Below, in pieces: positions 6,472-63,879 of a DNA stretch of 64,000 bases. Within the stretch, counting starts at the first letter, position 1; every line of letters starts with the position of its first letter. The position numbers and the translations under genes were made by a program. The DNA comes from a virus: positions 89,149 through 153,148 of the IMG/VR virus record IMGVR_UViG_3300042562_001598. The stretch is one strand, 5' to 3'. The notes beneath the pieces were generated by a model. It saw only the letters and a list, made by a program, of their open reading frames with translations, was not told the DNA's origin and did not search any database.

Positions 6472-6479
6472 TATCTTTG
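6472..6479 (+). promoter_or_regulatory. Bacteroidetes sigma-A -7 box TATCTTTG
   Basis: TAnnTTTG about 21 nt upstream of ATG 6500. Confidence 0.45.
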
Positions 6480-6499
6480 ATATTATAAATAAATTTGAG

Positions 6500-14576: not shown

Positions 14577-14577
14577 T

Positions 14578-14799: not shown

Positions 14800-14843
14800 T
14801 TCTCCTTTTTGTTTTACAGTATATTTATTAATAAACTATTATT

Positions 14844-19587: not shown

Positions 19588-20019
19588 ATGGTGGAGTGGT
19601 TAACTTATGTTGACCCCAAAAAAAAGGAGGTAACTATTACCTCTTTTTTCTTTTTTATTATATTTATAAATATGAAAGTCATTATTACAGAGAATAGAAT
19701 ATATAATATTGCTAAAAAAGAGTTAACCAAGAAGTTTGGTGATTTAATTCTGTTTAAGGATGAAAAATTCCCAAATAGGGTTTTCTATATTGACGAACAA
19801 CAAAAAGTTTATTTTGATAATAATAAAATTGATGATAATGTCAGAATTAATTATCATATTTTTGGACCATTTTTAGAAGACACCTTTCAATTTGAGTATG
19901 AACAAATACTACAAGTTACAAAGGAATGGTTAGAGGAACATTACAATTTAGAAATAAATAAATTATACGCGGTTAATCCTATTACTGAGATTCGTTGGAG
20001 AAATATTACGAATAGATAA
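19588..20019 (+). CDS. hypothetical protein, family with 25857-26249; start probably internal (MKVIITENRIY, about 19669)
   Basis: shared ELTKKFGDLI, EWLEEHYNLE segments with 25857 ORF. Confidence 0.45.
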   Translation: MVEWLTYVDPKKKEVTITSFFFFIIFINMKVIITENRIYNIAKKELTKKFGDLILFKDEKFPNRVFYIDEQQKVYFDNNKIDDNVRINYHIFGPFLEDTFQFEYEQILQVTKEWLEEHYNLEINKLYAVNPITEIRWRNITNR

Positions 20020-40046: not shown

Positions 40047-41975
40047 ATGGAAAAGATAAATGTATTGAGTTTGTTTGATGGGATGAGTTGTGGTCAGATT
40101 GCTCTGAATAGAGCTGGTATTGAGTATGGTAATTATTATGCTTCTGAAATTGATAAACACGCAATTAAAGAAACCATGGCGAACTATCCCAATACAATCC
40201 AGGTTGGTGATGTTACAAAGATTACAGCGTCAGATTTACCAAAGATAGACTTATTAATTGGTGGTAGTCCATGTTTTACCGCGGGTAATTTAGTGATGAC
40301 TAATGATGGTTATAAACCAATAGAAGATATTGTTGTTGGTGATATGGTATTGACTCATAAAAATAGGTATAAAAAAGTTTTAAGAATTGGTGGTGAAATT
40401 AAAGAGACGATACGAGTAAAATCCCAAGGGTCAAGTATGATAGAAACAACTAGAAACCATCCATTTTATTGTTTTGAGAGTAATGGTGAGAATTCTGACT
40501 TTTGTTGGAAAAATATTGGTGATTTTAATAAAAAAGATAAAGTTGTATCTATAAATTGGGGTGTAAATATTGATTTTGAGAACTTTTCAAATATTGATTT
40601 ATACATATTAGGTCGTTTTTTAGCGGATGGTTGTTGTTACAAAACAAAAAGAAAAGATAGAGATAATTCTTACATCTATAAGTTTAAAATAAGTGTTGGG
40701 AAACATGAAATAGATGACTTTAAGAGTAAAGTTGATGATAGATTTACCTATATTGAAGAAAAAACTGTATATAATGCTTTTATATATAAAAAAGAATGGG
40801 TTGAGATAGGTGAAAAATTTGGCCACTTAGCTCATAATAAATTTATACCTAATTTCATATTAGATTTACCTATTGATAGACTTAAAATTTTCATCAATGG
40901 ATATATGGATGGTGATGGTCATGTTAGAAAACAAGCTTCTAAAGTCAATGTATATAAAAGAAATACGACTGTTAGTGAAAAACTAGCTCTTACATTATCT
41001 TTAGCTATACAAAAATGTTACAATGGGGTGTCAATTAATTATACAAAAAGAGAAAATACTTGTGTTATTGAAGGTAGAGTTGTAAATCAAAAAGGGACTT
41101 ATGAAGTTTCATATACTGAAAATAAAACAAAATTTAGTAAGTATAAAATAATAAATGATTATACAATTTACAACCTGACTAAAAGTGTTTCATTTGTTGA
41201 AACTGGAACTAATCCTGTTTATAATATAGAGGTAGAAGAAGATAATTCATATGTGGTTAATAATCTAATTGTTCATAATTGCCAAGGATTTTCTTTTAGT
41301 GGAAAACAATTAAACTTTGAGGACCCAAGAAGTAAATTGTTCTTTGAGTTTGTTAGACTATTAAAGGAGTGTAATCCGAAATACTTTTTACTTGAGAATG
41401 TTGTAATGAAAAAAGAATATGAACAGGTAATAACTGATTACTTGGGAGTAGAACCCATTCAGATTAATTCCACTTTGGTGGCAGCCCAAAATCGCGTGAG
41501 ATTGTATTGGACCAATATACCAAATGTTCAACAACCTGAAGATAGAAACATAAGGTTAATTGATATTTTAGAAGATGATGTAATGATTGGCGATACAATT
41601 GTTAGAAAGGAGAACCTGAACAAAGGAACTATACTTGGTAGGAGACTAAATAACGAGGGTAAGAGAGACGATTACAATAAAAGTGTGCCAATAGTTCAGT
41701 GCCTTGAGATAAGAGCGTCAAATAGAGAAAAAAGTAATTGTATAACAACCGTGGCCAAAGATAATGTTTTATCTACATTACCAATAGGTCGGCATGTTGA
41801 TGCGTTTAATAAGAAATTACCTTTTAGATATTATACGACTACAGAATATAGTAGATTACAGACTGTTCCAGATGATTATTTCAAGGTTTCAAGTGATAAT
41901 CAGATAAGAAAAATGATTGGTAATGGGTGGACTGTTGATGTTATTGCTCACATATTCAATAATATACAACTATAA
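40047..41975 (+). CDS. DNA (cytosine-5)-methyltransferase interrupted by an intein
   Basis: N-extein ...LIGGSP / intein CFTAGNLV...VHN / C-extein CQGFSFSGKQ; spliced product restores GGSPCQ motif IV. Confidence 0.8.
   Translation: MEKINVLSLFDGMSCGQIALNRAGIEYGNYYASEIDKHAIKETMANYPNTIQVGDVTKITASDLPKIDLLIGGSPCFTAGNLVMTNDGYKPIEDIVVGDMVLTHKNRYKKVLRIGGEIKETIRVKSQGSSMIETTRNHPFYCFESNGENSDFCWKNIGDFNKKDKVVSINWGVNIDFENFSNIDLYILGRFLADGCCYKTKRKDRDNSYIYKFKISVGKHEIDDFKSKVDDRFTYIEEKTVYNAFIYKKEWVEIGEKFGHLAHNKFIPNFILDLPIDRLKIFINGYMDGDGHVRKQASKVNVYKRNTTVSEKLALTLSLAIQKCYNGVSINYTKRENTCVIEGRVVNQKGTYEVSYTENKTKFSKYKIINDYTIYNLTKSVSFVETGTNPVYNIEVEEDNSYVVNNLIVHNCQGFSFSGKQLNFEDPRSKLFFEFVRLLKECNPKYFLLENVVMKKEYEQVITDYLGVEPIQINSTLVAAQNRVRLYWTNIPNVQQPEDRNIRLIDILEDDVMIGDTIVRKENLNKGTILGRRLNNEGKRDDYNKSVPIVQCLEIRASNREKSNCITTVAKDNVLSTLPIGRHVDAFNKKLPFRYYTTTEYSRLQTVPDDYFKVSSDNQIRKMIGNGWTVDVIAHIFNNIQL
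40272..41279 (+). mobile_element. intein (336 aa) with LAGLIDADG homing-endonuclease domain
   Basis: block A CFTAGNLVMTNDG, block B TTRNHPFY (TxxH), LAGLIDADG-like LYILGRFLADGCCY and FINGYMDGDGHV, terminal HN followed by +1 Cys. Confidence 0.7.
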
Positions 41976-43003: not shown

Positions 43004-44050
43004 ATGAAAAAGAACGCTTTAAAAGAGGAAGTATTACGAATTCACGAACTTACTTATGGTAAGAAAATTTTGGAGGAACAAAACTTCCTATCAAAAATAT
43101 TTGGTGATGATAAAGAAAAGACAAGTAAAGTTGACGACCCAAAAAAGGCTGATATTGTAACTTCAGATGTTAAAAAATTCTATCAAAATATTGAGGACGC
43201 TATTTCATCGGGTGGATTATCACAACAAAAAATCGGAACGATGAATTTCCAAAAGGGTGTTGAGTCTATGCAAATTGGTTTAATGTTATTAGGTTATGAT
43301 TTACCTAAACATGGTGTTGATGGGTTATTTGGTCCTGAAACGGCGAATGCTGTTGGTAAGTTTATTAGTGATAACTTAAAGGACTCTGTTGACTTAACCA
43401 AAGATAGTTCAAAAAAAGTTGAAGCGACACCGGAGATGTTGGGTAAATTATTAGAAATGTTAGAAACGAAGGGTATTTCTTCTGAAGAACTTAAAAAATA
43501 TATTGATTCTGTTACTACAGGTGGTGGTGCTAACTTTACTGATTTAGATTTATCAACAACTGAAGGATATGAGGCTTATGCTGAAATATGTCAAAAGTTT
43601 ATAGATAGTAAACAACCAAATTTATTGGGTATTACTGGAACTATGTTGGCTGATGGTGCTAAACGAGCTTTTGATAATCGTCATAAGTATGTCCCACCTG
43701 AATTAGCCTTGGCTCAATTAGCTGCTGAAGGTGGTATAGGTAATAAAAACGCTCAAAGTAGACCAATAAGAACTAAAAACCCATTCAATGTTGGAAATGT
43801 TGATTCTGGTGGAAATGTTTTCCATGGGGATGTACAAAGTGGTATTAACACTTATTATGATTTAATAGCTAAAGATTATTTGGTTAAAGGTAAAACCGCT
43901 TCAGATTTGGTAAAACAATTTGTTAATAAGAGTGGTAATAGATATGCGACTTCAGCTTATGAACCATTTATTAATAAACTTGCTGGTGAGGCAAATAGAA
44001 TTGCTACCCCAATTTATTTAGCAATGTCTAACAAAGAACGAGAAGTTTAA
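43004..44050 (+). CDS. peptidoglycan-binding + glucosaminidase-like (endolysin-like) protein with N-terminal shared module
   Basis: PG_binding_1-like MQIGLMLLGYDLPKHGVDGLFGPETANAVGKFI; C-terminal ALAQLAAEGGIG...NPFNVG reminiscent of FlgJ-type glucosaminidase. Confidence 0.45.
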   Translation: MKKNALKEEVLRIHELTYGKKILEEQNFLSKIFGDDKEKTSKVDDPKKADIVTSDVKKFYQNIEDAISSGGLSQQKIGTMNFQKGVESMQIGLMLLGYDLPKHGVDGLFGPETANAVGKFISDNLKDSVDLTKDSSKKVEATPEMLGKLLEMLETKGISSEELKKYIDSVTTGGGANFTDLDLSTTEGYEAYAEICQKFIDSKQPNLLGITGTMLADGAKRAFDNRHKYVPPELALAQLAAEGGIGNKNAQSRPIRTKNPFNVGNVDSGGNVFHGDVQSGINTYYDLIAKDYLVKGKTASDLVKQFVNKSGNRYATSAYEPFINKLAGEANRIATPIYLAMSNKEREV

Positions 44051-44623: not shown

Positions 44624-44827
44624 ATGGAAAAAAAGATAACATTAGGGAAGGCAATCAAAATTAAGGTTAAAGATTCGGTATCATCTTATGTGTGGAATAG
44701 GTTATATGAAAAATTAGATAAGTTAGTAAGTAATAAAATATATAATTCAACCATTCATTTACAAAAAGAATCGGAGGTTTATGAGATGTATTACGCAATA
44801 TGGTTGTCAATTAGGCGTAAATTATGA
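44624..44827 (+). CDS. array unit 1 (degenerate; no SV repeats)
   Basis: MEKKITLGKAIKIKVKDSVSS... leader-like N-terminus. Confidence 0.4.
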   Translation: MEKKITLGKAIKIKVKDSVSSYVWNRLYEKLDKLVSNKIYNSTIHLQKESEVYEMYYAIWLSIRRKL

Positions 44828-45063
44828 AAACAAAGATAGAATTAGGCAAATCGGTTATGAATGAAGTAAGGAGTTCAGTTAGGCGTTCAGTAAATATTTT
44901 AGTGAGTAATTCAGTGTGTGGTTCAGTGAGTAGTTCAGTGGATAGTTCAGTGAGGAGTATAGTGTGTGGTTCAGTAAATATTTCAGTGTATAATTCAGTA
45001 TATGATTCAGTGGATAGTTCAGTGTGGAGTTCAGTATCTGATTCAATAAATAATAATATATGA
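44824..45063 (+). CDS. SV-repeat minigene
   Basis: MKTKIELGKSVMNEVRSSVRRSVNILVSNSVCGSVSSSVDSSV... Confidence 0.55.
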   Translation: MKTKIELGKSVMNEVRSSVRRSVNILVSNSVCGSVSSSVDSSVRSIVCGSVNISVYNSVYDSVDSSVWSSVSDSINNNI

Positions 45064-45224
45064 AAACAAAGTTAGTCTTGGGGAAACCAGTTAATGGTAA
45101 TGTGGTTGAATCAGTTAAGAATTCGGTGTGGATTTTAACACATATTTCATTGTATCGTTCAGTGAATAGTTCAGTATACAATTCAGTGTTTAATTCGGTG
45201 TGGCGTCCAAGTTTTATATTATGA
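45060..45224 (+). CDS. SV-repeat minigene (54 aa, not in track; approx coords)
   Basis: MKTKLVLGKPVNGNVVESVKNSVW...; ATGA overlaps both sides. Confidence 0.45.
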   Translation: MKTKLVLGKPVNGNVVESVKNSVWILTHISLYRSVNSSVYNSVFNSVWRPSFIL

Positions 45225-45388
45225 AAACAAAGATTAAATTGGGGGAATCGGTTAGGGTGTTACTGTATAAGTCAATAAGGAGTTCAGTTGATGTTTCACT
45301 GATGTTTACAGCGTATGGTTCAGTGCATAAGTCAGTGTGGACTTCAGTTAGGACTTCAGTTCATAATCCAACAAATATTAGCATATGA
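45221..45388 (+). CDS. SV-repeat minigene (listed ORF 45200-45388 has internal start MKTKIKLGESV)
   Basis: ATGA overlap with previous unit. Confidence 0.5.
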   Translation: MKTKIKLGESVRVLLYKSIRSSVDVSLMFTAYGSVHKSVWTSVRTSVHNPTNISI

Positions 45389-45594
45389 AAACAAAGATAG
45401 ACCTGGGGGAATCGGTTAAGGGTAAAGTTAGGAGTTCAGTGAGGGATTCAGTGAGACATTCAATATCCCCTTCAATGTACAATTCAGTTAAAAGTGTTCT
45501 GCATAGTGAAATATTTTCATCACTTGAGAATTCTATTAGGCATTCAGTTAGTAATTCAATCTATTGGACTATAGATAACTTCAATAAACTTTAG
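45385..45594 (+). CDS. SV-repeat minigene
   Basis: MKTKIDLGESVKGKVRSSVRDSV... Confidence 0.55.
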   Translation: MKTKIDLGESVKGKVRSSVRDSVRHSISPSMYNSVKSVLHSEIFSSLENSIRHSVSNSIYWTIDNFNKL

Positions 45595-45597
45595 ATT

Positions 45598-45777
45598 ATG
45601 AAAACAAAGGTAGACCTGGGGAAATCAATTAAGGATAAAGTGTATGATTCAGTACTTAGTTCAGTGAGGAGTTCAGTGAATAGTTCAGTGTATGGTTCAG
45701 TTAGTAGTTCAGTGTATGATTCAGTGGGGAGTTCAGTGTATAGTTCAGTTAGGAATTTAACAAACATTAGATTATGA
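45598..45777 (+). CDS. SV-repeat minigene (59 aa, approx)
   Basis: MKTKVDLGKSIKDKVYDSVLSSVRSSVNSSVYGSVSSSVYDSVGSSVYSSV. Confidence 0.5.
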   Translation: MKTKVDLGKSIKDKVYDSVLSSVRSSVNSSVYGSVSSSVYDSVGSSVYSSVRNLTNIRL

Positions 45778-46034
45778 AAACAAAGATTACATTGGGAGAA
45801 TCAGTTGAAGATAAGATTTTCCAAATAGTTACTGATGTGATTAGTAAAAAAAGTTATGACTTGTTAATCAGGGGAGTTTCATCAAATATGTTAAAGGGTG
45901 TTTCAGATGGGGTATATGATTACGCCTATAATTCAATATTACCTTCATTGAGTAGGGAAGTGTGGTTATTAGCGGTCACTAATTCAACAATAAAAAATTA
46001 TGAAAACAAAGATAGACCTGGGGAAATCGGTTAA
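45774..46034 (+). CDS. array unit lacking SV repeats (reads through into next unit leader)
   Basis: MKTKITLGESVEDKIFQIV...; no ATGA stop at its end. Confidence 0.4.
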   Translation: MKTKITLGESVEDKIFQIVTDVISKKSYDLLIRGVSSNMLKGVSDGVYDYAYNSILPSLSREVWLLAVTNSTIKNYENKDRPGEIG

Positions 46035-46167
46035 GTGTAAAGTGTATGAGTCATTGTATTGTTCAGTAAATAGTTCAGTGTTTAGTTCAGTGAGTGGTTC
46101 AGAGATGCGTTCCGTTTGGAGTTCAATGAATAGTTCAGTGTGGATGTTAACAAATTTTAGATTATGA
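46000..46167 (+). CDS. SV-repeat minigene (approx)
   Basis: MKTKIDLGKSVKCKVYESLYCSVNSSVFSSV... Confidence 0.45.
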   Translation: MKTKIDLGKSVKCKVYESLYCSVNSSVFSSVSGSEMRSVWSSMNSSVWMLTNFRL

Positions 46168-46325
46168 AAACAAAGATTAGATTGGGGAGGTCAGTTAAGG
46201 ATAAAGTGAGGAGTTCAGTTTGGAATTTAGTTAGTCATTCATTGATGAGTTCCGTGCATGGTTCAGTGAAAAATCCAGTGTATTTTTCAGTAAGGAGTTC
46301 AATTTATGAATCATTAAAAATATAA
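46164..46325 (+). CDS. SV-repeat minigene (approx)
   Basis: MKTKIRLGRSVKDKVRSSVWNLV... Confidence 0.45.
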   Translation: MKTKIRLGRSVKDKVRSSVWNLVSHSLMSSVHGSVKNPVYFSVRSSIYESLKI

Positions 46326-46326
46326 T

Positions 46327-46530
46327 ATGAAAAATTTAGGTAATTCAATTAAAGATAATGTTGGGGATTTAGTTAAAGTTTCAGTTTGGCGTTCAACGAG
46401 TGAATTAATTAATGATTCAACAGGTGGTTTAACAATCCTTTCAACTTGGAAAACAACAGGTCTATCATTACGAGATTCAGTTAGTAATTCAATTTATAAT
46501 CAATTAAGAGTTCTTCAAGATGAAAATTAA
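46327..46530 (+). CDS. divergent array unit
   Basis: MKNLGNSIKDNVGDLVKVSVWRS... Confidence 0.4.
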   Translation: MKNLGNSIKDNVGDLVKVSVWRSTSELINDSTGGLTILSTWKTTGLSLRDSVSNSIYNQLRVLQDEN

Positions 46531-46696
46531 AAAATTAGGAAAACCTGTTAAGCGTAAGTTGTTTAGTTCGGTAAATAATTTAATTTATTATTCAATAGGT
46601 GTTAAGCTCTATAAAGATAAGACTAGTAATATCTGGGATTTTGGTTACGAGTCAGTAAGAAAACCAATTGATAATTCAATAAATTTTAGATTATGA
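46520..46696 (+). CDS. divergent array unit (approx)
   Basis: MKIKKLGKPVKRKLFSSVNNL...INFRL. Confidence 0.4.
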   Translation: MKIKKLGKPVKRKLFSSVNNLIYYSIGVKLYKDKTSNIWDFGYESVRKPIDNSINFRL

Positions 46697-46980
46697 AAAC
46701 AAAGGTAGGTCTGGGGAAATCAGTTAGTGATAAAGTGAGGAGGTCAGTGGAGAATTCAATTAAAAGTTCAGTTCGGTGTTCAGTAGATGATTTAGTGAGT
46801 AGTTCAGTGAGTTATTCAGTGAGGAGTTCAGTGATGAGTTCAGTGTATTGGCCAGTGTGTGATTTAGTGTGGAGTTCAGTGAGTATTTCAGTTAATATTT
46901 CAGTGTGGCGTTCAGTGAATATTTCAGTACATAATTCAGTAAGGTATTCAGTGAGTGATTCAATAATAAATAGTATATGA
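46693..46980 (+). CDS. SV-repeat minigene (95 aa, longest)
   Basis: MKTKVGLGKSVSDKVRRSVENSIKSSVRCSV... Confidence 0.55.
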   Translation: MKTKVGLGKSVSDKVRRSVENSIKSSVRCSVDDLVSSSVSYSVRSSVMSSVYWPVCDLVWSSVSISVNISVWRSVNISVHNSVRYSVSDSIINSI

Positions 46981-47228
46981 AAACAAAGGTAGACCTGGGT
47001 AAATCGGTTAAGGGTGAAGTATGGAATTTAGTTAATCATTCAGTGTATAGTTCAGTGTATGATTCAGTGAGTTGTTCAGTTAGTAGTTCAGTTATTGATT
47101 CAGTGGATGATTCGGTGTGGAGTTCCGTGCATGTTTCAGTTTGGATTTTATTATATAGGTCAGTGGATGATTCGGTGTGGAGTTCAGTACATGGTTCAGT
47201 TAATAATTCAATAGAGGATAGTATATGA
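46977..47228 (+). CDS. SV-repeat minigene with internal 60-bp duplication
   Basis: SVDDSVWSSVH repeated; DNA 47101-47130 = 47161-47190. Confidence 0.55.
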   Translation: MKTKVDLGKSVKGEVWNLVNHSVYSSVYDSVSCSVSSSVIDSVDDSVWSSVHVSVWILLYRSVDDSVWSSVHGSVNNSIEDSI

Positions 47229-47440
47229 AAACAAAGGTAGACTTGGGAGAATCAGTTAAGAATAAACTTAAGAATTCAGTGTGTAGTTCAGTTAGTCAGT
47301 CCGTGAGTATTTCATTTACAAGTACAAAATATTATTTAGTGGATAGGTCAGTCTATACATCACTGAAATGGTCAGTGAATGATTTGGTATGGTTCTCAGT
47401 GTATGAAATTATTTGTGATTCAATAGAAGATAAATTATGA
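47225..47440 (+). CDS. SV-repeat minigene
   Basis: MKTKVDLGESVKNKLKNSVCSSV... Confidence 0.5.
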   Translation: MKTKVDLGESVKNKLKNSVCSSVSQSVSISFTSTKYYLVDRSVYTSLKWSVNDLVWFSVYEIICDSIEDKL

Positions 47441-47640
47441 AAACGAGGGTAAAATTAGGAAAATCAGTTAAGAATGAGGTTAAAGAATTAGTGTGTTGTA
47501 ATGTGAATTTATTTTATTTTTCAGTGGGAAAATTTGTATATGATTTAGCTAGTGATAAAGTAAAAAATCCGGTGTACAGAACAAGCGATATAATATGGAG
47601 GTCGGTTCGTGACTCAACTATTCAATTTAATAAAAAATAG
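47437..47640 (+). CDS. divergent array unit
   Basis: MKTRVKLGKSVKNEVKELV... Confidence 0.45.
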   Translation: MKTRVKLGKSVKNEVKELVCCNVNLFYFSVGKFVYDLASDKVKNPVYRTSDIIWRSVRDSTIQFNKK

Positions 47641-47643
47641 ACT

Positions 47644-47847
47644 ATGAAATTAGGAAAATCAGTTAAGTTTGAGGTGATTAAAGCGGTTGATGAAGGAATA
47701 TTTGATGTTGTTACAGAATTGATTGATAACTCAATTAAGAATTTAGTATGGGATTCAGTATTTTATTCAGTGTGGGATGCGATGAATGTTTCATTATTAT
47801 CACCGATATTTGAACCAATAGAGGATAACTTATGGGAAGAAAATTAA
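47644..47847 (+). CDS. divergent array unit
   Basis: MKLGKSVKFEVIKAVDEGI... Confidence 0.45.
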   Translation: MKLGKSVKFEVIKAVDEGIFDVVTELIDNSIKNLVWDSVFYSVWDAMNVSLLSPIFEPIEDNLWEEN

Positions 47848-48047
47848 TATTAGGTAAATCAGTTAGTTATAGAGTTACTAATTCAATAGGTGATTCAATC
47901 TGGAGTATTAATTATGGGTCCATTAACCAGTTAGTGGATAGTTCAATTATTTTTCCAATAAAAGACTTATCGGAGGAAATATTAGATGATTTAGTATTTG
48001 GTTTGGTGAGTAGTACAATTAATATTTCAATAACAAATAGACTATGA
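47832..48047 (+). CDS. divergent array unit
   Basis: MGRKLILGKSVSYRVTNSIGDSIW... Confidence 0.45.
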   Translation: MGRKLILGKSVSYRVTNSIGDSIWSINYGSINQLVDSSIIFPIKDLSEEILDDLVFGLVSSTINISITNRL

Positions 48048-48247
48048 AAACAAAATTAATATTGGGTAATTTAGTGGGAACCGAATTAAACAGGTCAATA
48101 TGGGAATCAGTTAGAGTTTCAATTGAGATGAAAGTAGGTGTTTCAGTATGGGAAACAATAAACCAATCAGTTTATGAACCGATACAGGAAATAGTAAATG
48201 ATTCAATCAACAACCAACTATATTGGTTAATAAAAAGTAAAGTATAA
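48044..48247 (+). CDS. divergent array unit (last)
   Basis: MKTKLILGNLVGTELNRSIWESV... Confidence 0.45.
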   Translation: MKTKLILGNLVGTELNRSIWESVRVSIEMKVGVSVWETINQSVYEPIQEIVNDSINNQLYWLIKSKV

Positions 48248-54575: not shown

Positions 54576-55400
54576 ATGAGAGATAATAAGAAAGGGGATA
54601 ATATAAATAATAATGTTATGACAATAGATTTAAGATTTGGTGATACGATAGAACAAATGAAATTGATATCTGATAAAAGTATTGACTTTATTTGTTGTGA
54701 TTTACCTTATGGTTCAACAAAAAACAATTGGGATATTATCATACCATTTGACCAACTTTGGGAACAATATAAGAGAATTATTAAAGATGATGGGGCTATC
54801 GCGTTATTTGGGACAGGTTTGTTTGCTTATAAGTTAGCGTTATCAAATGAGAAAATGTATAAGTATGAAATAATTTGGTCAAAATCTAAAAGTGGTAGTT
54901 CATTTACTGCAAAATATAGACCCGTTCAGAAACATGAAAACATTTTAATATTTGGGAAAGGTAAAGTGGTATATAATCCACAATTAGAACCGGGTGAACC
55001 ATACTATAGGAAACGGAAAGCTAATGATGGGGATAAACCAAATAATCATAAATTAGGTGTTGTATCTGAAAGTGAGACCAAGAATGATGGGTTTAGATAT
55101 CCGTCAACTATTCAATTTTTCCAACAAAAATGGAGAAGGCAAGACCAACTACATAGTACACAAAAACCTGTGGAACTTATAGAATGGTTAATAAAATCAT
55201 ATAGTAATGAAAGTGATACTATTTTGGATAATACATTTGGTAGTTGCACCGCGGGAATTGCTAGTATAAACACTAATAGGAATTTTATAGGAATTGAGAA
55301 TAACCAACATTATTTTGATGTTTCTATAGAGAGAATTAATAAAATATTACAATATAACGACCCGAACCATATGAAAGACATTATCTTAATTACTCAATAA
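54576..55400 (+). CDS. beta-class N6-adenine/N4-cytosine DNA methyltransferase (start probably 54618, MTIDLRFGD)
   Basis: motif IV CCDLPYGS (D/S-PPY-like), C-terminal motif I ILDNTFGSCTAGIAS (DxFxGSGT). Confidence 0.7.
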   Translation: MRDNKKGDNINNNVMTIDLRFGDTIEQMKLISDKSIDFICCDLPYGSTKNNWDIIIPFDQLWEQYKRIIKDDGAIALFGTGLFAYKLALSNEKMYKYEIIWSKSKSGSSFTAKYRPVQKHENILIFGKGKVVYNPQLEPGEPYYRKRKANDGDKPNNHKLGVVSESETKNDGFRYPSTIQFFQQKWRRQDQLHSTQKPVELIEWLIKSYSNESDTILDNTFGSCTAGIASINTNRNFIGIENNQHYFDVSIERINKILQYNDPNHMKDIILITQ

Positions 55401-55987: not shown

Positions 55988-56299
55988 ATGAACTTAAACG
56001 AAAACATACAGAGAATAAAACAAATGATGGGGGTCATAACTGAAGATAGGTCATCAATAAATGTGTTAAGAAGATTACCAAGGGTTAAAAAATTATTAGA
56101 TGTGATTTTAGAATATTCACATCCTTGTGATTTTGGTAATGTTCAACATTTTATTGATGGAATATTATACGATATTGATACTTTTTTAATTGCGTATGAA
56201 ATGGAAGGTATGTCTTCAGGTGAGATAAAAGAGTTTATTTCAGAATATTTAAGTGATGATATTGAGAGATATTATTATGATAGTAAAGAAGATTGTTAA
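55988..56299 (+). CDS. hypothetical protein with MNLNENIQRIKQMMG N-terminus
   Basis: 103-aa ORF. Confidence 0.45.
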   Translation: MNLNENIQRIKQMMGVITEDRSSINVLRRLPRVKKLLDVILEYSHPCDFGNVQHFIDGILYDIDTFLIAYEMEGMSSGEIKEFISEYLSDDIERYYYDSKEDC

Positions 56300-56933
56300 T
56301 ATGAACCTACAAGAAAAGATAAGAACCCTATTAAGGGAACAAAGTGAACAAAAGGTGGAGATTAAACCACCAATATTCTTTAGAAGAAGAGTAACCCAAG
56401 ATGAAACGGATAAAAACTTCAGACATAGTGTAGTTTATGTAATCAATAATTTCCGAAAATATCGCAATTTATTCAACTTTAATGATTATGGTGTTGATAA
56501 ATTCAAACGCGCCGTCATAATTGTCTTAATAGATGAATATAGTGATATACTATCAGATAGTGATGATTTCCCTTATGATGAGATGTATGATTATCTATAT
56601 AACCATTATGAATCTGAAATGGAAGATAGGTATAATGAACTTGTTAATGATTTGCAGGAGAACATAAATGAATCAACATTCTTTAAAAGAAGAAGTGATA
56701 TAGAAAAGATAAAAGATTTATTACCATTATTTGTAGATGATGTTTTCTATGAGTCTGAAAATTTTGAGGACTTCAAATATCAATTAACAATAAGAGCATT
56801 AGAATATTATATATGGTTAACCCATAAGTTATCCTGGGACGAACTACCATATGAGGAAGAGACAGATTTTGTTAATCAAATAAGTGAAGTATTAAACGAT
56901 ACAATTAAAGAACTTTACAACACCAAGATTTAA
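56300..56933 (+). CDS. hypothetical protein (MNLQEKIRTLLREQ; listed ORF 56253 starts upstream in overlap)
   Basis: start immediately after upstream stop. Confidence 0.45.
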
Positions 56934-56934
56934 T

Positions 56935-57615
56935 ATGAACTTAAACGAAAACATACATAGAATAAAATCAATGATGGGGATTAATGAATCCGAAGAGGAG
57001 GTATTTTATATATTTAACCCAAAGGATAATAAAATTATAGGGTTTAATATAACATCCGAGGACGAGTTAAATAATTTGTTGTATGATGATAACGGACATA
57101 ATCTTGGTTATGGGTGGGGATTACAAGTAAATAGATTTGATTCCTTAGATGACATTCAACAATGGAACCAAGAAAAAATGGGGGATAGAAATACTAAAGA
57201 GACTCAAAACTCAAAATATCCTGATTTAAGTTATATCGCATCAAATTTAAGAAAAATTGATGGATTAGACTATTACACCATTAACAGAGGTAGTTGTTTC
57301 AAGTTCGCAAAAGAAATATCTGAATTAGGTTACAATACATTTACGTTCATATTCTCAAATGAAGAACAAGAAGTTATACATGTTTATATAAAACTTAATA
57401 ACAACTTATATTTTGATGCAACCGGTTTCCATTCTAAAAAAGAAATAAAAGACGAATACATTAGTGGGGAAGATAATGATATGTATGATTCAGATATATC
57501 AGAATTAGACCACTACTGTAGTTTAGATACATATAATACTCTAACAACAATACCAATCTCCAATCAATTATGGAAGAAAGTTGTAAGTGTAATTAAAAAA
57601 TCCTCATCCAATTAA
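56935..57615 (+). CDS. hypothetical protein with MNLNENIHRIKSMMG N-terminus
   Basis: 226-aa ORF; 3' end inside terminator cassette (…KSSSN*). Confidence 0.45.
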   Translation: MNLNENIHRIKSMMGINESEEEVFYIFNPKDNKIIGFNITSEDELNNLLYDDNGHNLGYGWGLQVNRFDSLDDIQQWNQEKMGDRNTKETQNSKYPDLSYIASNLRKIDGLDYYTINRGSCFKFAKEISELGYNTFTFIFSNEEQEVIHVYIKLNNNLYFDATGFHSKKEIKDEYISGEDNDMYDSDISELDHYCSLDTYNTLTTIPISNQLWKKVVSVIKKSSSN

Positions 57616-59048: not shown

Positions 59049-59243
59049 TTAGTTAAGTTCATCGTATATCTCCAGGGTAACAAGGTTCCATACCGGAAGT
59101 TCTATTGATTTATATGGGGGATTATAAATGGACTGGGGATAATCATACCTGGTCTTTATCCAAAGGGGTGTATCAATATTGAGACTTATTGAACTATACA
59201 CTATACCCTTAACTGACTTCCCCAATGTAATCTTTGTTTTCAT
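59049..59243 (-). CDS. array unit (degenerate C-terminus)
   Basis: MKTKITLGKSVKGIVYSSISLNIDTPLW... Confidence 0.4.
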   Translation of the reverse strand: MKTKITLGKSVKGIVYSSISLNIDTPLWIKTRYDYPQSIYNPPYKSIELPVWNLVTLEIYDELN

Positions 59244-59414
59244 AATCTAAAATTTGTTGAATTATTAACAGGGTCAACCAATAACCTCCATACTAAATCA
59301 TATATTGGACCATGCACGGAACTCATCAATGAACGACTAACTGAACGCCACACTGAACTCCTCACTTTATCCCTAACTGATTTCCCCAATCTAATCCTGG
59401 GGGTAATAACTTCT
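59241..59414 (-). CDS. SV-repeat minigene (approx, not in track)
   Basis: MKEVITPRIRLGKSVRDKVRSSVWRSVSRSLMSSVHG...NFRL. Confidence 0.4.
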
Positions 59415-59415
59415 T

Positions 59416-59643
59416 TCATATACTATTCTTTATTGAATTATTAACTGAACCATACACTAAATTCCACACTGAACTATATACTGAAATATTCACTGAACGC
59501 CTAACTGAACAACTCACTGAACTATGTACGGAACTATACATTGAATTATCTACTGAACCATACACTAAATTCCACACTGAATTCCACACTAACTTATCCA
59601 CCGGTTTACCCAATCTAATCCTGGGGGTAATAACTTCTTTCAT
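59416..59643 (-). CDS. SV-repeat minigene (MKEV type)
   Basis: MKEVITPRIRLGKPVDKLVWNSVWNLVYGSV... Confidence 0.55.
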   Translation of the reverse strand: MKEVITPRIRLGKPVDKLVWNSVWNLVYGSVDNSMYSSVHSSVSCSVRRSVNISVYSSVWNLVYGSVNNSIKNSI

Positions 59644-59843
59644 ATACTATTCTTTATTGAATTATTAACTGAACGCCAAGCTGAACTATACACTGAATCA
59701 TATACTGAATTCTGCACCGAACTATCCACTGAACCACACACTATACTCCTCAATGAAATATCCACTGAACTACTCACTGAATCATACACTGACCTCCTCA
59801 CTTTACGATTAACCGATTTCCCCAAGACTAACTTTGTTTTCAT
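59640..59843 (-). CDS. SV-repeat minigene (MKTK type; listed ORF extends to 59864)
   Basis: internal start MKTKLVLGKSVNRKVRRSVYDSV. Confidence 0.5.
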   Translation of the reverse strand: MKTKLVLGKSVNRKVRRSVYDSVSSSVDISLRSIVCGSVDSSVQNSVYDSVYSSAWRSVNNSIKNSI

Positions 59844-60007
59844 AATATAAAACTTGAACTCCACACCGAATTAAACACTGAAATATTTACTGAACCACAC
59901 ACTATACTCCTCACTGAACTATCCACTGAATAATACACTGACTTCCTCACTTTAACCTTAACCGATTTCCCCAAGACTAACTTGGGGGTAATAATCTTAT
60001 TATCCAT
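59840..60007 (-). CDS. SV-repeat minigene (55 aa, approx, not in track)
   Basis: MDNKIITPKLVLGKSVKVKVRKSVYYSVDSSVRSIVCGSV... Confidence 0.4.
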   Translation of the reverse strand: MDNKIITPKLVLGKSVKVKVRKSVYYSVDSSVRSIVCGSVNISVFNSVWSSSFIL

Positions 60008-60183
60008 AATCTAAAATTTGTTGAACTATATACTGAAATATTCACTGAGCGTCTAACTGAAAACCAGACTGAACTATGTACTAAATCCCACAATGAACTA
60101 CCCACTGAACTACTCAATGACCTATTCACTGACCTACTAACTGATTCCCCCAATGTAATCCTGGGGGTTATTACTTCTTTCAT
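59977..60183 (-). CDS. SV-repeat minigene (MKEV type; reads through into next leader)
   Basis: MKEVITPRITLGESVSRSVNRSLSSSVGSS... Confidence 0.5.
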   Translation of the reverse strand: MKEVITPRITLGESVSRSVNRSLSSSVGSSLWDLVHSSVWFSVRRSVNISVYSSTNFRLWIIRLLPPS

Positions 60184-60398
60184 AATCTATTCTTTATTGA
60201 TTCACGTATTGGACGACTAACTGAACTCTTCACTGAACTATGCACTGACCTTTCTACTGAATGATACAATGAAATATCCACAGAACTACTTACTAAACGA
60301 CTAGCTGAATAATCCCTCAATGAATGATACACTGAACGATTAATTGAATCCCACAATTTATCCTTAACAGATTCTCTAATTCTAATCTTTGTTTTCAT
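60180..60398 (-). CDS. SV-repeat minigene (MKTK type)
   Basis: MKTKIRIRESVKDKLWDSINRSVYHSL... Confidence 0.5.
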   Translation of the reverse strand: MKTKIRIRESVKDKLWDSINRSVYHSLRDYSASRLVSSSVDISLYHSVERSVHSSVKSSVSRPIRESIKNRL

Positions 60399-60622
60399 AA
60401 TCTATTTATTATTGAACTCCTCACTGACCTTATCACTGAACTATTCACTGAACGATACACTGAACGATACACTGAACGATATACTGAACTCCTAACAGAA
60501 CCCCTCACTGAACGATTCACCGAACTATTCACTGACCTTATCACTGAACTACTCACTGAACTATCCACTTTACCCTTAACTGACTTCCCCAATGTAATCC
60601 TGGGGGATATTACTTCTTTCAT
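60395..60622 (-). CDS. SV-repeat minigene with 3x perfect 12-nt tandem repeat (SVYRSVYRSVYRSV)
   Basis: gaacgatacact x3 at about 60450-60485. Confidence 0.55.
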   Translation of the reverse strand: MKEVISPRITLGKSVKGKVDSSVSSSVIRSVNSSVNRSVRGSVRSSVYRSVYRSVYRSVNSSVIRSVRSSIINRL

Positions 60623-60822
60623 AATCTATTCTTTATTGATTCATTAACTGAACCCTTAATTGAACTCCATACTGAATTAGTCACTGGTCTCCACACCGAA
60701 TCATCCACTGACCTAACCACTGTAGTATTAACCGACCCCATACTTGAACCCACCACATAATCATGTAGATAAACTCTCACTTTACGATTAACCGGTTTCC
60801 CCAATGTAATCTTTGTTTTCAT
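60619..60822 (-). CDS. SV-repeat minigene (MKTK type)
   Basis: MKTKITLGKPVNRKVRVYLHDYVVGSS... Confidence 0.5.
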   Translation of the reverse strand: MKTKITLGKPVNRKVRVYLHDYVVGSSMGSVNTTVVRSVDDSVWRPVTNSVWSSIKGSVNESIKNRL

Positions 60823-61034
60823 AATATAAAATTTGTTAAACTCCTGATTGGAGAATCCACTGAACGCCTAACTGAAATATACACCGAACTACTCACTGAA
60901 CTATATACTGAACCATGCACTGACCTTTCTACTGAACTATATACTGAACCATGCACGGAATTATCTACTGAACTCAACACTAACTTATTAACCGACTTCC
61001 CCAATCTTATCCTGGGGGATATAACTTCTTTCAT
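60819..61034 (-). CDS. SV-repeat minigene (MKEV type)
   Basis: MKEVISPRIRLGKSVNKLVLSSVDNSVHGSVYSSV... Confidence 0.55.
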   Translation of the reverse strand: MKEVISPRIRLGKSVNKLVLSSVDNSVHGSVYSSVERSVHGSVYSSVSSSVYISVRRSVDSPIRSLTNFIL

Positions 61035-61222
61035 ATTCTATTCTTTATTGAACTATATACTGAATTACTCACTGAACTCTCCACTGAAGACCTTACCAAT
61101 CTCCATACTGAATCATACACTGGAATATTTACTGAACCACACAATGCACCAATCATTGACATATCCAGCGAACTTCTTAATTTATCACTAACTGACCTCC
61201 CCAATTTAATATTTGTATTCAT
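61031..61222 (-). CDS. SV-repeat minigene (internal start MNTNIKLGRSV of listed ORF 61031-61279)
   Basis: leader variant. Confidence 0.45.
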   Translation of the reverse strand: MNTNIKLGRSVSDKLRSSLDMSMIGALCGSVNIPVYDSVWRLVRSSVESSVSNSVYSSIKNRI

Positions 61223-61409
61223 TATTAAAAGTTGTTGGATACCACAATGAATCACACACTGCATCACATACAGAATCACGCAATAACCAATTCACTGAAC
61301 TATACACGGAACTATATACAGAATCGTACACTGTAATCCTAAGTGAACTACTTATTTCACCCTTAACCGGTTTCCCCAATCTAATCCTGGGGGTCATAAC
61401 TTCTTTCAT
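61206..61409 (-). CDS. SV-repeat minigene (MKEV type, degenerate tail)
   Basis: MKEVMTPRIRLGKPVKGEISSSLRITVYDSVYSSVYSSV. Confidence 0.5.
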   Translation of the reverse strand: MKEVMTPRIRLGKPVKGEISSSLRITVYDSVYSSVYSSVNWLLRDSVCDAVCDSLWYPTTFNNEYKY

Positions 61410-61624
61410 ATTCTAATGTTTATTGAATTAGTCACTGACCTATATACTGAACGATATACTGAACTACTCACCGAAATATCCACTGAACTCTTAACTGAAT
61501 TCCTAACTGGTCTACTTACTGAATTAGCCACTAAATCATACACTGACCTACTTACTTTATCCATAACCAAACTCCCCAATCTTATCCTGGGGGTTATTAC
61601 TTTACCATCCATATCACTTAACAA
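61406..61624 (-). CDS. SV-repeat minigene (outermost unit, leader MLSDMDGKVITPRIRLG)
   Basis: same family. Confidence 0.5.
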   Translation of the reverse strand: MLSDMDGKVITPRIRLGSLVMDKVSRSVYDLVANSVSRPVRNSVKSSVDISVSSSVYRSVYRSVTNSINIRI

Positions 61625-61629
61625 TTAAA

Positions 61630-62245
61630 CCACAAAGATAATCATTTATTCATTACAATCCTAATCCATCCTGGGGGAATAACAATCCCTTATATAAAAA
61701 TAAAAGGTAGGTCGCCGTCTACTCTACCCGATTGTAAAACAAATCGCGCCCCCGTGGAAGTCTTATCCCCCATTTCCGTTATACAAAGATACAAAACCCC
61801 CAGGTATAAACCAAACTTATATTCATAAAGTTATTAACATGACATATAGTCTGTTGATAACTTTCCCCCATTGTTAATAACTTCCTATTGTCAGTGCGTC
61901 AGGTTCATAACTTGTTAATAACTTCTAACCACCAGGGGAGGGAGCCACTTAAATGGTTCATTATTAGGTTGTTATACCGGGCTGCCTGGGGCGTATGGGG
62001 GGGCGCTACCTACTGCCCCCGTATCCCCCTTCCTTCCTGCCCCCTGTCAAAGTGTCAGAAGGGGGGATAATCCCAAGAATGAAGTGTATGGGTAAAAAAA
62101 ACTTTATAGGAAAATTGTTGGAAAAAGGTAAAATAAATTTCTGGAAAAAATTGGGGAAATGAGTCCCCCATTTACAGGGGTGGTTTAGAAATGATTTATG
62201 TATGTTTTTTCATTTTAGGTTATATTTATTATAAAAAAATATTAT
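61630..62245. other. ORF-free, locally GC-rich structured region with iterons (candidate ncRNA/origin/packaging signal)
   Basis: TTGTTAATAACTTC x2 plus GTTATTAAC/GTTGATAAC variants (61820-61930); GC hairpin GGGGGCGctacctactGCCCCCG at about 62005; C-rich runs; composition unlike rest of window. Confidence 0.4.
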
Positions 62246-62629
62246 ATGAAAAAAGTTATAACATTAACAGAAAACGATTTGGTTCGTTTAATTAAAAAAG
62301 TAATTAGTGAACAAATGAAAGTTGACGATTCAGAAGTTTCTCAATTTATTAAAACACCCAATAAATTAGTTATTCTTGATTTTACAGCTGAATGGTGTGG
62401 TCCTTGTCAAAAGATTAAAAAACATTTTGACGAGATTATTGAAAACCCTAAATTGAGTAACAAATTTATTTTAGGTTCTTATGATTTTAGTTTTAGTTCA
62501 CCGTTAGCGAAGAAATATAATATTCAAGGAATACCTTATGTTATGTTTTTTAGAAATGGTAAAATGATTCATAAGTTTGTAGGGTATAAAGACAAAGAAC
62601 ATATTGTTTCTTTAATACAGAAACTTTAA
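62246..62629 (+). CDS. thioredoxin with N-terminal shared module (MKKVITLTENDLVRLIKKVISEQ)
   Basis: canonical AEWCGPCQKIK active site. Confidence 0.7.
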   Translation: MKKVITLTENDLVRLIKKVISEQMKVDDSEVSQFIKTPNKLVILDFTAEWCGPCQKIKKHFDEIIENPKLSNKFILGSYDFSFSSPLAKKYNIQGIPYVMFFRNGKMIHKFVGYKDKEHIVSLIQKL

Positions 62630-62631
62630 TA

Positions 62632-62665
62632 ATCCCCCTCTTCAACGGAGGGGTTTTTTATTTTC
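62632..62665 (+). terminator. intrinsic terminator (ccccctcttcaacggagggg + T run); degenerate second copy at about 62745-62775
   Basis: hairpin + T6. Confidence 0.5.
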
Positions 62666-62842
62666 TATAAACACGAGCCCTTTATATATGGAGGGGTCAA
62701 TAGTGAAAAAAAAATTCTGGGAAAATTTTCAGAAAAAGGGGATTAGTATATATCTTCAACGAAAGGGGTTTTTTTATATCATCAATGTTGATTCTATAGT
62801 TTTTTATTTGTATGATTATATAAACCTTAAAATTTATATATT

Positions 62843-63133
62843 ATGTCAGAACAAACGGAACAAAGTGTAAAGACCATTGCGGTATTTGTGAGAGAGTATT
62901 ATGAAACATCTATTGTTAGAGAGCCTATTGAGTTGAATATTGGGGATTACCCTGAATTGGAGGGTATGACCCAGGATGAGGCAATTGATTATGTTGAATC
63001 TAACGCTTGGGAGATGAAAGCAACCATTGATGATTATGATTCACTTGCTGACCAACTCAGTGATATGGATATTCGTAGAGATAAGATTACCAATGAGACC
63101 CAAGAGATTAATGCGGTTAAAGAAATGTTTTAA
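62843..63133 (+). CDS. hypothetical acidic protein
   Basis: 96-aa ORF followed by terminator. Confidence 0.4.
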   Translation: MSEQTEQSVKTIAVFVREYYETSIVREPIELNIGDYPELEGMTQDEAIDYVESNAWEMKATIDDYDSLADQLSDMDIRRDKITNETQEINAVKEMF

Positions 63134-63165
63134 TTAACTCCCCCAATTATTTTATAGTTGGGGTT
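63128..63165 (+). terminator. intrinsic terminator (cccccaattattttatagttgggg + T run)
   Basis: near-identical copy at 63488-63528. Confidence 0.55.
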
Positions 63166-63217
63166 TTTTTTATTTTATGATATATTTATATTTAAATAAA
63201 ATTAAAAAATTAAAAAC

Positions 63218-63469
63218 ATGGGAAAAGTAATTAGATTAAGTGAAGACGATTTAAGTCGTTTGGTTAGAAAAATAATAAGTGAAGCGGTTATTGCTGAATC
63301 ATTTGATGATGTTGTAAACTATTTAGGTATTACACCTAATGAAAAAGGGAATATAAGTTTTAATTATAACCCACAAACCGGTCTTTATTTGACAAATACT
63401 AAAAATAACAGGAATTGTATATTAAAAATTACTCCACCAAAAACTCAACCAACTCAACCGGTACGATAA
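63218..63469 (+). CDS. small protein with shared N-terminal module (MGKVIRLSEDDLSRLVRKIISEA)
   Basis: 83-aa ORF in duplicated module. Confidence 0.4.
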   Translation: MGKVIRLSEDDLSRLVRKIISEAVIAESFDDVVNYLGITPNEKGNISFNYNPQTGLYLTNTKNNRNCILKITPPKTQPTQPVR

Positions 63470-63570
63470 AAAAATATATATTATTTACACCCCCAATTAT
63501 TTTATATAGTTGGGGTTTTTTTTATTTTATGATATATTTATATTTAAATAAAATAATTAAATTATTAAAT

Positions 63571-63879
63571 ATGAAAAAAGTAATAAGATTAACTGAATCC
63601 GATTTGATGAGGATTGTTAGAAGAGTGATTAAAGAGAATAACGCACCTGAAAGATATGTTATAGATATTGAAACGGGTAAAATGGTTGGAACACATCAAT
63701 ATGGTGTTGGTTTTACTGTAAATAAAATTGGTGAGAGAATGGGTTATGAATCAGACCCTGTTAGTATCCCTGATGGAACAAAGATGGAAGATAATGATAA
63801 CTCCCCTATGAGAATGGACAGATTTAATGATAGAGCTGAAATGCCTCGTATGAGAAGGTATAATGATTCACTTGAATAA
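63571..63879 (+). CDS. small protein with shared N-terminal module (MKKVIRLTESDLMRIVRRVIKEN); listed ORF 63415 starts upstream
   Basis: start right after duplicated terminator-promoter module. Confidence 0.45.
   Translation: MKKVIRLTESDLMRIVRRVIKENNAPERYVIDIETGKMVGTHQYGVGFTVNKIGERMGYESDPVSIPDGTKMEDNDNSPMRMDRFNDRAEMPRMRRYNDSLE

Follow-up and report, generated by a model that had tools for sequence, protein, structure and literature searches.

A family of short N-terminal leaders on unrelated proteins of an uncultured virus, and its likeness to the capsid-targeting sequences of phage T4

INTRODUCTION

In phage T4, internal proteins carry N-terminal capsid-targeting sequences of 10-19 residues, which bind the prohead core and are removed by gp21, and which are conserved while the cargo behind them is diverse (PMC9026906, PMC3012670). 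Prohead proteases of the T4 family cut after a Glu that is preceded by a short motif, and in the giant phage SPN3US the paralogues gp53 and gp54 have identical 15-residue N-termini in front of diverged remainders (PMC5694885). A short conserved terminal peptide, the cargo-loading peptide, is likewise sufficient to send unrelated enzymes into the HK97-fold shell of encapsulins (PMC8346489). Here we describe a family of conserved N-terminal leader peptides in a stretch of viral DNA of 64,000 nucleotides (positions 89,149 to 153,148 of IMG/VR record IMGVR_UViG_3300042562_001598), analysed as a whole and referred to as the window. The best defined leader, which we call tag A, heads three proteins with unrelated bodies; further leaders fall into classes B and C and a looser group, class D. 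Coordinates are those of the window unless another locus is named, and all leaders located below lie on the plus strand.

Compared with the capsid-targeting sequences of the T4 proteins IPI, IPII, IPIII and Alt, these leaders are similar in being short N-terminal peptides (about 22 residues here, 10-19 in T4), in ending with a hydrophobic-x-Glu motif that, judged by its sequence, would suit a gp21-family protease, in going together with gp20/gp21/gp23-type head assembly, and in combining a conserved leader with highly diverse and fast-evolving cargo. They differ in being longer and basic-amphipathic and in falling into at least three to five classes per genome. They also differ in scale, since dozens of genes per genome are tagged as opposed to about six, the cargo families number in the thousands, and some proteins have a second, internal copy. 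PHROGs and Pfam give no match to residues 1-23 of tag A, and we therefore claim for the relation to T4 an analogy rather than a homology. The many head-internal proteins of phiKZ-like giant phages (phiKZ, 201phi2-1, SPN3US) are also processed after Glu by a gp21-related protease and have redundant propeptide sites. However, their motif is A/S/G-x-E and not I/L-x-E, and their propeptides are mostly longer than 100 residues, with no single consensus across unrelated proteins. Encapsulin peptides, which we liken to the leaders by concept and not by sequence, differ in being usually C-terminal, in not being removed by a protease and in serving a cellular nanocompartment. At the level of genes, a parallel is provided by the promoter-stem-loop (PeSL) cassettes, which shuffle genes in T4-type phages and have been described, at the DNA level, as early-promoter elements. 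There too, small genes between a terminator-like hairpin and a promoter act as exchangeable units, but the conserved element described here also takes in the start of the coding sequence, as a peptide on which selection acts at the protein level.

RESULTS

Tag A in the window

The products of the genes at 62246, 63218 and 63571 begin with the same N-terminus of about 23 residues, just as had been proposed in the original prediction, which was made from the sequence alone. The consensus of this tag A is MKKVIRLTESDLxRIVKRVIxEQ, and in addition to the three canonical copies the window has one divergent and one weak internal copy. The first canonical copy (MKKVITLTENDLVRLIKKVISEQ, 62246-62314) heads a 127-aa thioredoxin protein (62246-62629), whose Pfam Thioredoxin domain covers residues 25-126. 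The second (MGKVIRLSEDDLSRLVRKIISEA, 63218-63286) and the third (MKKVIRLTESDLMRIVRRVIKEN, 63571-63639) head ORFans of 83 aa (63218-63469) and 102 aa (63571-63879), respectively; for the latter the start at 63571, and not the upstream ATG at 63529, is called in six public contigs. The divergent copy (MKKIKLTEQGLHKLIRTIVEQV, 12094-12159) is found on a 446-aa acidic protein (12094-13434), and the internal one (IKLTESEMVNLIEKIILEQ, 659-715) lies inside a 396-aa protein (143-1333), with no Met nearby.

A strict regular expression for the tag A core, [LIVFM][TS]E..[LFIM].[RK][LIVM][IVL], run over all six frames of the window, matched only four times, each time 5-6 residues past the start Met of a real ORF; one of the four is the divergent copy at 12094. 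Block-shuffled window DNA produced 0.46 matches on average and three at most, so the comparison with shuffled sequence suggested in the original prediction came out in its favour. A hidden Markov model (HMM) trained on 121 distinct tag sequences from the window and related viral loci gave 50.5 bits to the copy at 63571, 45.4 to that at 62246 and 41.0 to that at 63218. The divergent copy received 9.5 bits, the internal one 13.2 bits and every other example in the window about zero. The original prediction had spoken of one module on at least 14 unrelated proteins. The bodies are indeed unrelated: among 16 leader proteins of the window, only those at 19672 and 25857 have detectably related bodies, being paralogues. 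The notion of a single module, on the other hand, did not survive the HMM scores. In other words, the observation is real and far above chance, but it concerns a family of leaders rather than one module. A fifth tag A gene of the same phage, MKVIKLTESDLIRIINQILIE..., is found about 3.5 kb past the end of the window (L002:5433-5855, minus strand); its body is Cys-rich with a weak match to DUF5872.

Conservation and structure of the tag A peptide

Across 133 distinct tag A instances, residues L7, T8, S10, R14 and R18 are invariant or nearly so, while four to five synonymous codons are in use (TTA, CTT, CTA, TTG and CTC for L7; TCA, TCT, TCC, TCG and AGT for S10; AGA, CGA, CGT, AGG and CGC for R18). 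E22 is conserved at 99%, V19 at 90% and I20 at 89%, with D11 falling within 89-99%, and none of these residues was required by the regular expression used for selection. Conservation stops sharply after E22-Q23, and residues from 24 onward are unconserved. Because synonymous codons vary while the amino acids are invariant, selection acts on the peptide and not on RNA or DNA.

In the first 22 or so residues, a short strand-like segment (KVIRL) is followed by a capping box (TESD) and then by an amphipathic helix of basic character (LxRIVKRVIxE). Over residues 9-22 the hydrophobic moment (muH) is 0.69, which is in the top 2.4% of shuffles, and the net charge is +3, so that the amphipathic helix for which a helical-wheel analysis had been suggested is present. 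An AlphaFold2 (AF2) model of the thioredoxin protein at 62246 has one helix in the tag (residues 9-19, tag pLDDT 50-59) and a confident thioredoxin fold from about residue 23. We found no features of Sec, Tat or lipoprotein signal peptides in tag A, which is charged throughout (net +3), has a mean hydrophobicity of -0.16 and has no hydrophobic core. Genuine lipoprotein-like signals, such as those of the window proteins at 31619 and 33925, look quite unlike the tag.

Distribution of tag A in public data

A profile of the first 44 or so residues detected 300 short proteins (<80 aa), and all 33 of those retrieved begin with M[KG]K[VI][IV]RLTESDL and then diverge completely. An unrestricted profile search over 1.84 billion representatives yielded 7,935 clusters (50% identity) at E <= 1e-3 and 503 at E <= 1e-10. 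Among the best 150 public representatives listed, nearly all match from residue 1, and the best stretch begins within the first 12 residues. In IMG/VR there are more than 490 confirmed copies, on contigs of up to 322 kb. By comparison, 185,579 species-representative bacterial and archaeal genomes produced only three matches, of the variant MKKVIRLTESDLHRIVKESVKRVL, in metagenome-assembled bins, and tag A is thus essentially virus-only. In 79 viral loci, 196 of the 201 regular expression matches have a Met at a distance of 3-9 residues, and a stretch of 16-20 kb contains up to eight matches. The median length of the 154 unique tagged viral proteins is about 130 aa, and without the tag they form 117 cargo clusters.

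Second, internal copies of tag A were seen in 41 of 132 top public representatives (those from the earlier short-protein search being left aside). Such two-tag proteins (P0136-P0240) have one N-terminal and one internal copy, the latter with a decayed MKKVIR part but with LTESDLxRIVKRVIxE kept. Several internal copies have hydrophobic-x-E-N just before them (ILE|N, IFE|N, LSE|N, INE|N). This is a hint, though not a general one, of processing in the manner of a polyprotein. A variant with a short insertion, MKKVIRLTESDLHRIVKESVKRVLxE (L170:1032, L171:1436, L172:1758), comes from a reindeer Bacteroidales bin and an Alphaproteobacteria bin with 35-44% G+C; because it occurs there, the leader family may reach beyond the lineage of the window.

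No Pfam-A, NCBIfam or PHROGs model covers residues 1-23 of tag A or the leaders of classes B and C (the best, phrog_16400, has a non-significant E-value of 0.015), and no description of the motif was found in the literature searched. Searched by tblastn with tags A, B and C, a set of 50,697 phage records gave no match; a query of 20-23 aa can detect near-identical copies only.

Upstream motif and gene cassettes

The promoter-like motif ATATTTAT is found 16 nt upstream of the thioredoxin ATG (62222-62229, plus strand). Further copies occupy equivalent positions at 63182, 63534, 12064 (ahead of the divergent tag A gene), 14821 and 19109 (ahead of the two class C genes), 19660, 42990 and 55966 (ahead of the first gene of a class B run). 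The motif precedes the ATG of 88 of the 133 tag A genes, mostly at a distance of 4-30 nt, and often has a hairpin and T-run before it. In the window it heads about 17 plus-strand genes, which are mostly tagged (Fisher p = 7.6e-6, odds ratio about 20), and the tagged genes that do not have it come directly behind a gene that does. In related loci it also precedes the genes for the head protease (12/12), the scaffold (3/3) and a 243-aa protein termed p243 (25/25), as well as the sheath gene and some capsid genes. The signal is carried by the position of the motif and not by the count of the 8-mer.

A tagged gene is usually a cassette of its own, made up of a terminator, the promoter-like motif, a short leader region and the ATG. 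Directly before the motif of the 63218 gene there is a terminator-like hairpin with a T-run (CCCCC...GGGG TTTTTTTT, 63140-63171, plus strand), and the two elements bound a swappable cassette. Strain L010 provides an example of such a swap, in which the 83-aa tag A gene at 63218-63469 is exactly replaced by an unrelated 132-aa gene with tag C (L010:1342-1740). On the two sides of the replaced gene, strain and window share 99% and 96% identity, and the breakpoints, at 63204 and 63515, coincide with the promoter-like motif and the next terminator.

Further leader classes and their common end

The other N-termini that the original prediction had listed as further examples are recurrent leaders as well, but they do not belong with tag A and form the separate classes B, C and the looser D. 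Class B, with the consensus MNLQENIxRIKEMMGLIxE, occurs at 35933, 36725, 55988 and 56935, with a variant at 56301. The leader MNLQENIVRIREMMLAEE (35933-35986) heads the gene 35933-36706, downstream of a gene at 35000 that is headed by ATATTTAT, and MKLQENIDRMKSMMGLIGE (36725-36781) heads 36725-37405. A run of three tag B genes starts with MNLNENIQRIKQMMGVITE (55988-56044), which heads 55988-56299. It continues with the variant MNLQEKIRTLLREQ (56301-56342) on a 210-aa protein read from an internal Met of the ORF 56256-56933, related MNLQQNIKRILREE leaders being found by unsupervised clustering, and ends with MNLNENIHRIKSMMGINE (56935-56988), heading 56935-57615. A B-like leader, MKKNALKEEVLRIHELTYGKKILEEQ (43004-43081), placed in class B by eye, heads 43004-44050 with a PG-binding/glucosaminidase-like body. 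Class C (MKKFIITEEEKxRILGMH...) is represented at 14844 and 19133 in the form xFII(S/T)EEEK. In the first case MKNRFIISEEEKKSILGLHETFKNTEILKEQ (14844-14936) heads 14844-15248 with a Pfam PG_binding_1 domain at residues 39-95, and in the second MGKKFIITEEEKNEIKTLYNINEQ (19133-19204) heads a 142-aa protein (19133-19561). Class D is a loose MKVIITE / IIITEKQL group at 19672 (MKVIITE, 19672-19692, about zero bits with the tag A HMM), 25857, 20037 and 15248, which is tied to tags A and C only via chains of N-terminal similarity in the unsupervised clustering.

In 2.3 Mb of related DNA, every leader of classes B and C is located at an N-terminus. In IMG/VR, the 144 confirmed matches to class B correspond to 91 unique proteins in 42 cargo clusters, and the 122 confirmed matches to class C correspond to 68 unique proteins in 35 cargo clusters. 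Unsupervised clustering of 664 genes headed by ATATTTAT resulted in a mega-cluster of 221 proteins from 165 cargo families and in the smaller leader classes E (...RIISEQ) and F (...RPLIxEQ). Other window genes headed by ATATTTAT (4989-7888, 143-1333 and 22150-23760) have helical N-termini with early hydrophobic-x-Glu sites (MNFIKLLSNLIVE|D, ...GKILNE|T and MNLIKSIKALITE|A). They may represent further leader types; two of them encode leucine-rich-repeat proteins.

The leader classes have in common only their last residues, namely hydrophobic-hydrophobic-x-Glu with, as a rule, Gln or Asn behind it. For tag A this end reads V-I-x-E-[QN]; for class B it reads G-[LV]-[LI]-x-E, the Glu of which is residue 19 in 52 of the 91 class B proteins. 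The end of class C is [FYL]-L-x-E-[QN] in most of the first 27 examples, and a stricter double-hydrophobic pattern is present in 30 of the 68 from IMG/VR. Taken together, classes B, C, E and F commonly end like tag A. At positions 8-45 of leader proteins, hh-x-E-[QN] (h, hydrophobic) occurs 11.5 times per 1000 residues, compared with 0.5 further in, which is a difference of about 20-fold.

Cargo proteins and exchange of leaders

Leaders of different classes are interchangeable on one cargo. The orthologues of the thioredoxin carry tag A, tag B (P0131), class C together with a decayed tag A (P0126, P0127), another leader (P0130, P0132, P0133) or none. The window also has an untagged thioredoxin (10280-10594), apart from the tagged one at 62246 and beside a glutaredoxin-like gene with a CPYC motif (10597-10881). 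Most tagged proteins have no Pfam domain. In a Pfam scan of ten long tagged cargos, we identified only PG_binding_1 and a sub-threshold annexin-like match (23.1 bits, cut-off 25), the rest being ORFans. Peptidoglycan-binding cargo would fit proteins that are ejected.

Head genes in related contigs

Genes for a large terminase and for a T4-type portal are present in loci that bear the tags; 3' of the portal gene follow those for a Peptidase_S77 protease, for a scaffold-like protein of very acidic composition and for a capsid protein of the Gp23 family. In L090 the matches are to PF03420 (Peptidase_S77, 2.4e-23), PF07068 (Gp23, 3e-73) and PF07230 (Portal_T4, 1.8e-77), and the protease also matches the T4 gp21 structure 5jbl (3.6e-15). 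The putative scaffold is named by gene position and acidic composition alone and has no family match. In L090 its gene lies at 14497-16194 and that of the protease at 13418-14122. In several cases the tag locus and the portal locus come from the same IMG/VR contig (for example, L050/L114 and L060/L120), and in L060 and L071 tagged paralogues lie a few kb from the terminase and portal genes. The window has 65-77% nucleotide identity to these loci over several genes. The phage lineage that carries the tags is thus T4-like, with a gp21-family protease. Among cultured phages, Microcystis phage Mel-JY01 (43% identity) and Flavobacterium phage immuto have the closest capsid proteins. The head genes of Mel-JY01 are arranged in the order seen in the lineage, but the HMM scan found no tag in 170 of its 190 kb, nor in the first 50 kb of immuto. 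A ribosomal protein S21 gene is annotated within the head gene cluster of Mel-JY01 (L330:7184-7411).

In the capsid protein of the lineage, the conserved core is directly preceded by [HF]LINE|A, which is conserved as well, and KVIKE|D lies further towards the N-terminus. LINE|A is the site at which maturation would be expected and, like the leaders, it ends in hydrophobic-x-Glu. The gene for p243, just after the portal (L090:11669-12400), encodes 10 [LI]-x-E sites as compared to 4.6 expected, a pattern that would be expected of a prohead core protein degraded by the protease.

Several other genes recur in the related contigs. A Clp-family AAA+ ATPase-like protein of about 680 aa (PVLDNFSRDLIK...GRE) is encoded in L060 (3803-5851), L071 (5385-7421) and about ten other loci, and directly adjoins tagged genes in L060 and L071. 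DnaK-like proteins (MGKIIGIDLGTTNS...) are present as well (listed together with the Clp-like entry for L014, L025, L043, L049, L057, L058 and L081); both assignments were made by reading the sequences. Portal loci (L060, L093-L110) have a conserved gene of 60-63 aa (MIIV.VKN..S.EQALK.YKFK..., a cluster of 26) that is headed by ATATTTAT.

Other features of the window

The window has about 30% G+C and short genes, nearly all of them on one strand. No cultured phage matches it at the DNA level, and no tRNA and no Rfam family were detected within it. Its thioredoxin gene was found on 18 public contigs, mostly from JGI and ENA metagenome assemblies, one of which is 282 kb long. Two opposed arrays of at least 25 tandem small genes (about 60-95 aa) occupy 44624-48247 (plus strand) and 59049-61612 (minus strand) and extend into L002:3-9583 and L004:4333-8162. 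All array genes begin with MKTK(I/V)xLGKSVxxKV, followed by Ser/Val-rich SVxxSV repeats, and the opposite frames read LTELxTE. They constitute a very large paralogous family, the copy content of which varies between near-identical strains. Between the small-gene array and the thioredoxin gene lies a relatively G+C-rich region (61690-62170) with no convincing gene, tRNA or Rfam match. Three C-5 cytosine DNA methyltransferase genes are arranged in tandem at 37475-41975, the third of which (40047-41975) is split by an intein with Hint and LAGLIDADG domains. The window also has a gene resembling a methylase (27744-28718) and one for an N6/N4 methylase (54576-55400).

DISCUSSION

Based on the comparison with T4, we lean towards the view that a T4-like jumbo phage uses the leaders as capsid-targeting propeptides, in a system organised as in T4 but greatly expanded and divided into several classes. 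We favour it because the lineage is T4-like with a gp21-family protease, the leaders have an invariant hydrophobic-x-Glu end just where conservation stops, the upstream motif ATATTTAT is common to tagged genes and head-assembly genes, and leaders of different classes are exchangeable on one cargo. The original prediction had already raised capsid targeting with T4-type L-x-E sites, and this is the best-supported option, although the support is circumstantial. The site it pointed to, L7-T8-E9, gives way to I20-x-E22 at the end of the tag; both fit an L-x-E-type motif, but the latter is the more telling. According to the proposed mechanism, the tag helix would dock the protein on the prohead scaffolding core during head assembly, beside the capsid protein. 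The gp21-type prohead protease would then cut after the terminal Glu (E22 in tag A, possibly E9 too), and the mature cargo would be freed within the capsid and delivered into the host together with the DNA. Cargo genes would turn over fast by cassette replacement, as those of the T-even internal proteins do.

A number of points weigh against capsid targeting. Head genes are absent from the window itself, and the link to a gp21-type protease comes from related contigs with 65-77% nucleotide identity in some genes. A comparison of the tag with the head proteins gave nothing significant; all that matched was KVIKED, six residues long, in the capsid protein. The 8-mer ATATTTAT alone is barely above chance in AT-rich DNA (35 observed, 24 +/- 5 expected), and its designation as 'late' is inferred from the genes it precedes. 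The internal second copies (41/132) have no T4 precedent, and only a minority of them have hydrophobic-x-Glu just upstream. About 16 of some 118 window genes are tagged, a number far above that of the few proteins targeted in T4, and thioredoxin is not an obvious injected effector. Finally, the search for a cultured carrier of the tag found none.

Of the other explanations, the one that deserves most attention, though we consider it unlikely, is that the leader is a general docking or oligomerisation helix for another partner, such as a chaperone or unfoldase encoded by the phage, a hub on the virion surface or in the tail, or else the tagged proteins as each other's partners, and that neither cleavage nor packaging is involved. 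Such a role would agree with the strongly amphipathic and basic nature of residues 9-22, with a tag that is flexible and unpacked against the cargo in the AF2 model, and with the very high conservation, which implies one conserved partner. Two-tag proteins would suit a bivalent binder, and many tag loci adjoin genes that read as Clp-type ATPase- or DnaK-like. However, this adjacency may be plain synteny, and a docking helix leaves unexplained why unrelated classes have only the terminal hydrophobic-x-Glu in common, precisely where conservation ends, and why the site at which the capsid protein is expected to mature has that motif too. The common interaction helix that the original prediction listed as a separate option is in itself compatible with targeting. 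We think it very improbable that the leader merely hitch-hikes, with no targeting role, inside a mobile cassette of terminator, promoter and start, with which recombination would seed or capture new genes, the recurrence of the leader then being a product of gene birth or shuffling. Tagged genes are indeed discrete cassettes with conserved flanks, and the breakpoints of the L010 replacement lie at the promoter and the next terminator. Nonetheless, recombination homology would conserve DNA, whereas here it is the amino acids that are invariant and the synonymous sites that vary. Moreover, internal copies retain the peptide with no promoter, and retention of the tag at 80-90% amino acid identity over thousands of families, on contigs with portals that are 67-100% identical, requires selection on the peptide.

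There is similarly little to recommend an intrinsic functional element, either a membrane-binding amphipathic helix or a nucleic-acid-binding N-terminus of the ribbon-helix-helix kind, even though the strand-plus-helix pattern, the basic face and the amphipathicity could suggest one. Tag A presumably resembles the first half of ribbon-helix-helix proteins, but about 22 conserved residues are too short for that fold, and the sequence beyond the tag is unrelated between proteins. We rejected the complete domain, a strand and two helices in about 45 aa, as conservation ends at residue 23 and AF2 gives a single low-confidence helix at residues 9-19. As for membrane helices, they rarely need invariant acidic residues (E9, D11 and E22); furthermore, there is no Pfam, NCBIfam or PHROG match and no hydrophobic core for secretion. 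Least credible of all is a constraint on mRNA or DNA at gene 5' ends, through translation initiation or RNA structure, which had been the nucleic-acid-level alternative of the original prediction. ATG AAA AAA starts are common in AT-rich, highly expressed genes, but the use of up to five synonymous codons for invariant residues refutes this alternative, and the existence of internal copies and the lack of any Rfam match in the window also speak against it.

A bolder form of the capsid-targeting reading, which we offer tentatively and regard as somewhat doubtful, is a multi-class peptide 'zip-code'. At least five unrelated leader types would have converged on one protease site to load dozens of rapidly exchanged effectors per genome into the capsid for injection, with two-tag fusions possibly being processed like polyproteins. 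Under this reading the tag would mark, from sequence alone, the injected proteome of a large group of uncultured phages with about 8,000 cargo families.

Even if targeting turns out to be wrong, the 22-residue leader is among the most conserved short peptides in viral metagenomes, unannotated in Pfam, NCBIfam and PHROGs. If it is right, a string of 22 residues would reveal the packed and injected proteins of an uncultured jumbo-phage lineage with no need for virion proteomics, and the 7,935 clusters, mostly ORFans, would be a catalogue of candidate host-takeover and anti-defence effectors. The leaders would also offer a natural, well-defined packaging tag with a protease site for engineering. 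For the biology of these phages, capsid targeting would mean that a single genome can extend the internal-protein strategy of T4 to dozens of cargos, using several leader classes that replace one another and genes that turn over as cassettes.

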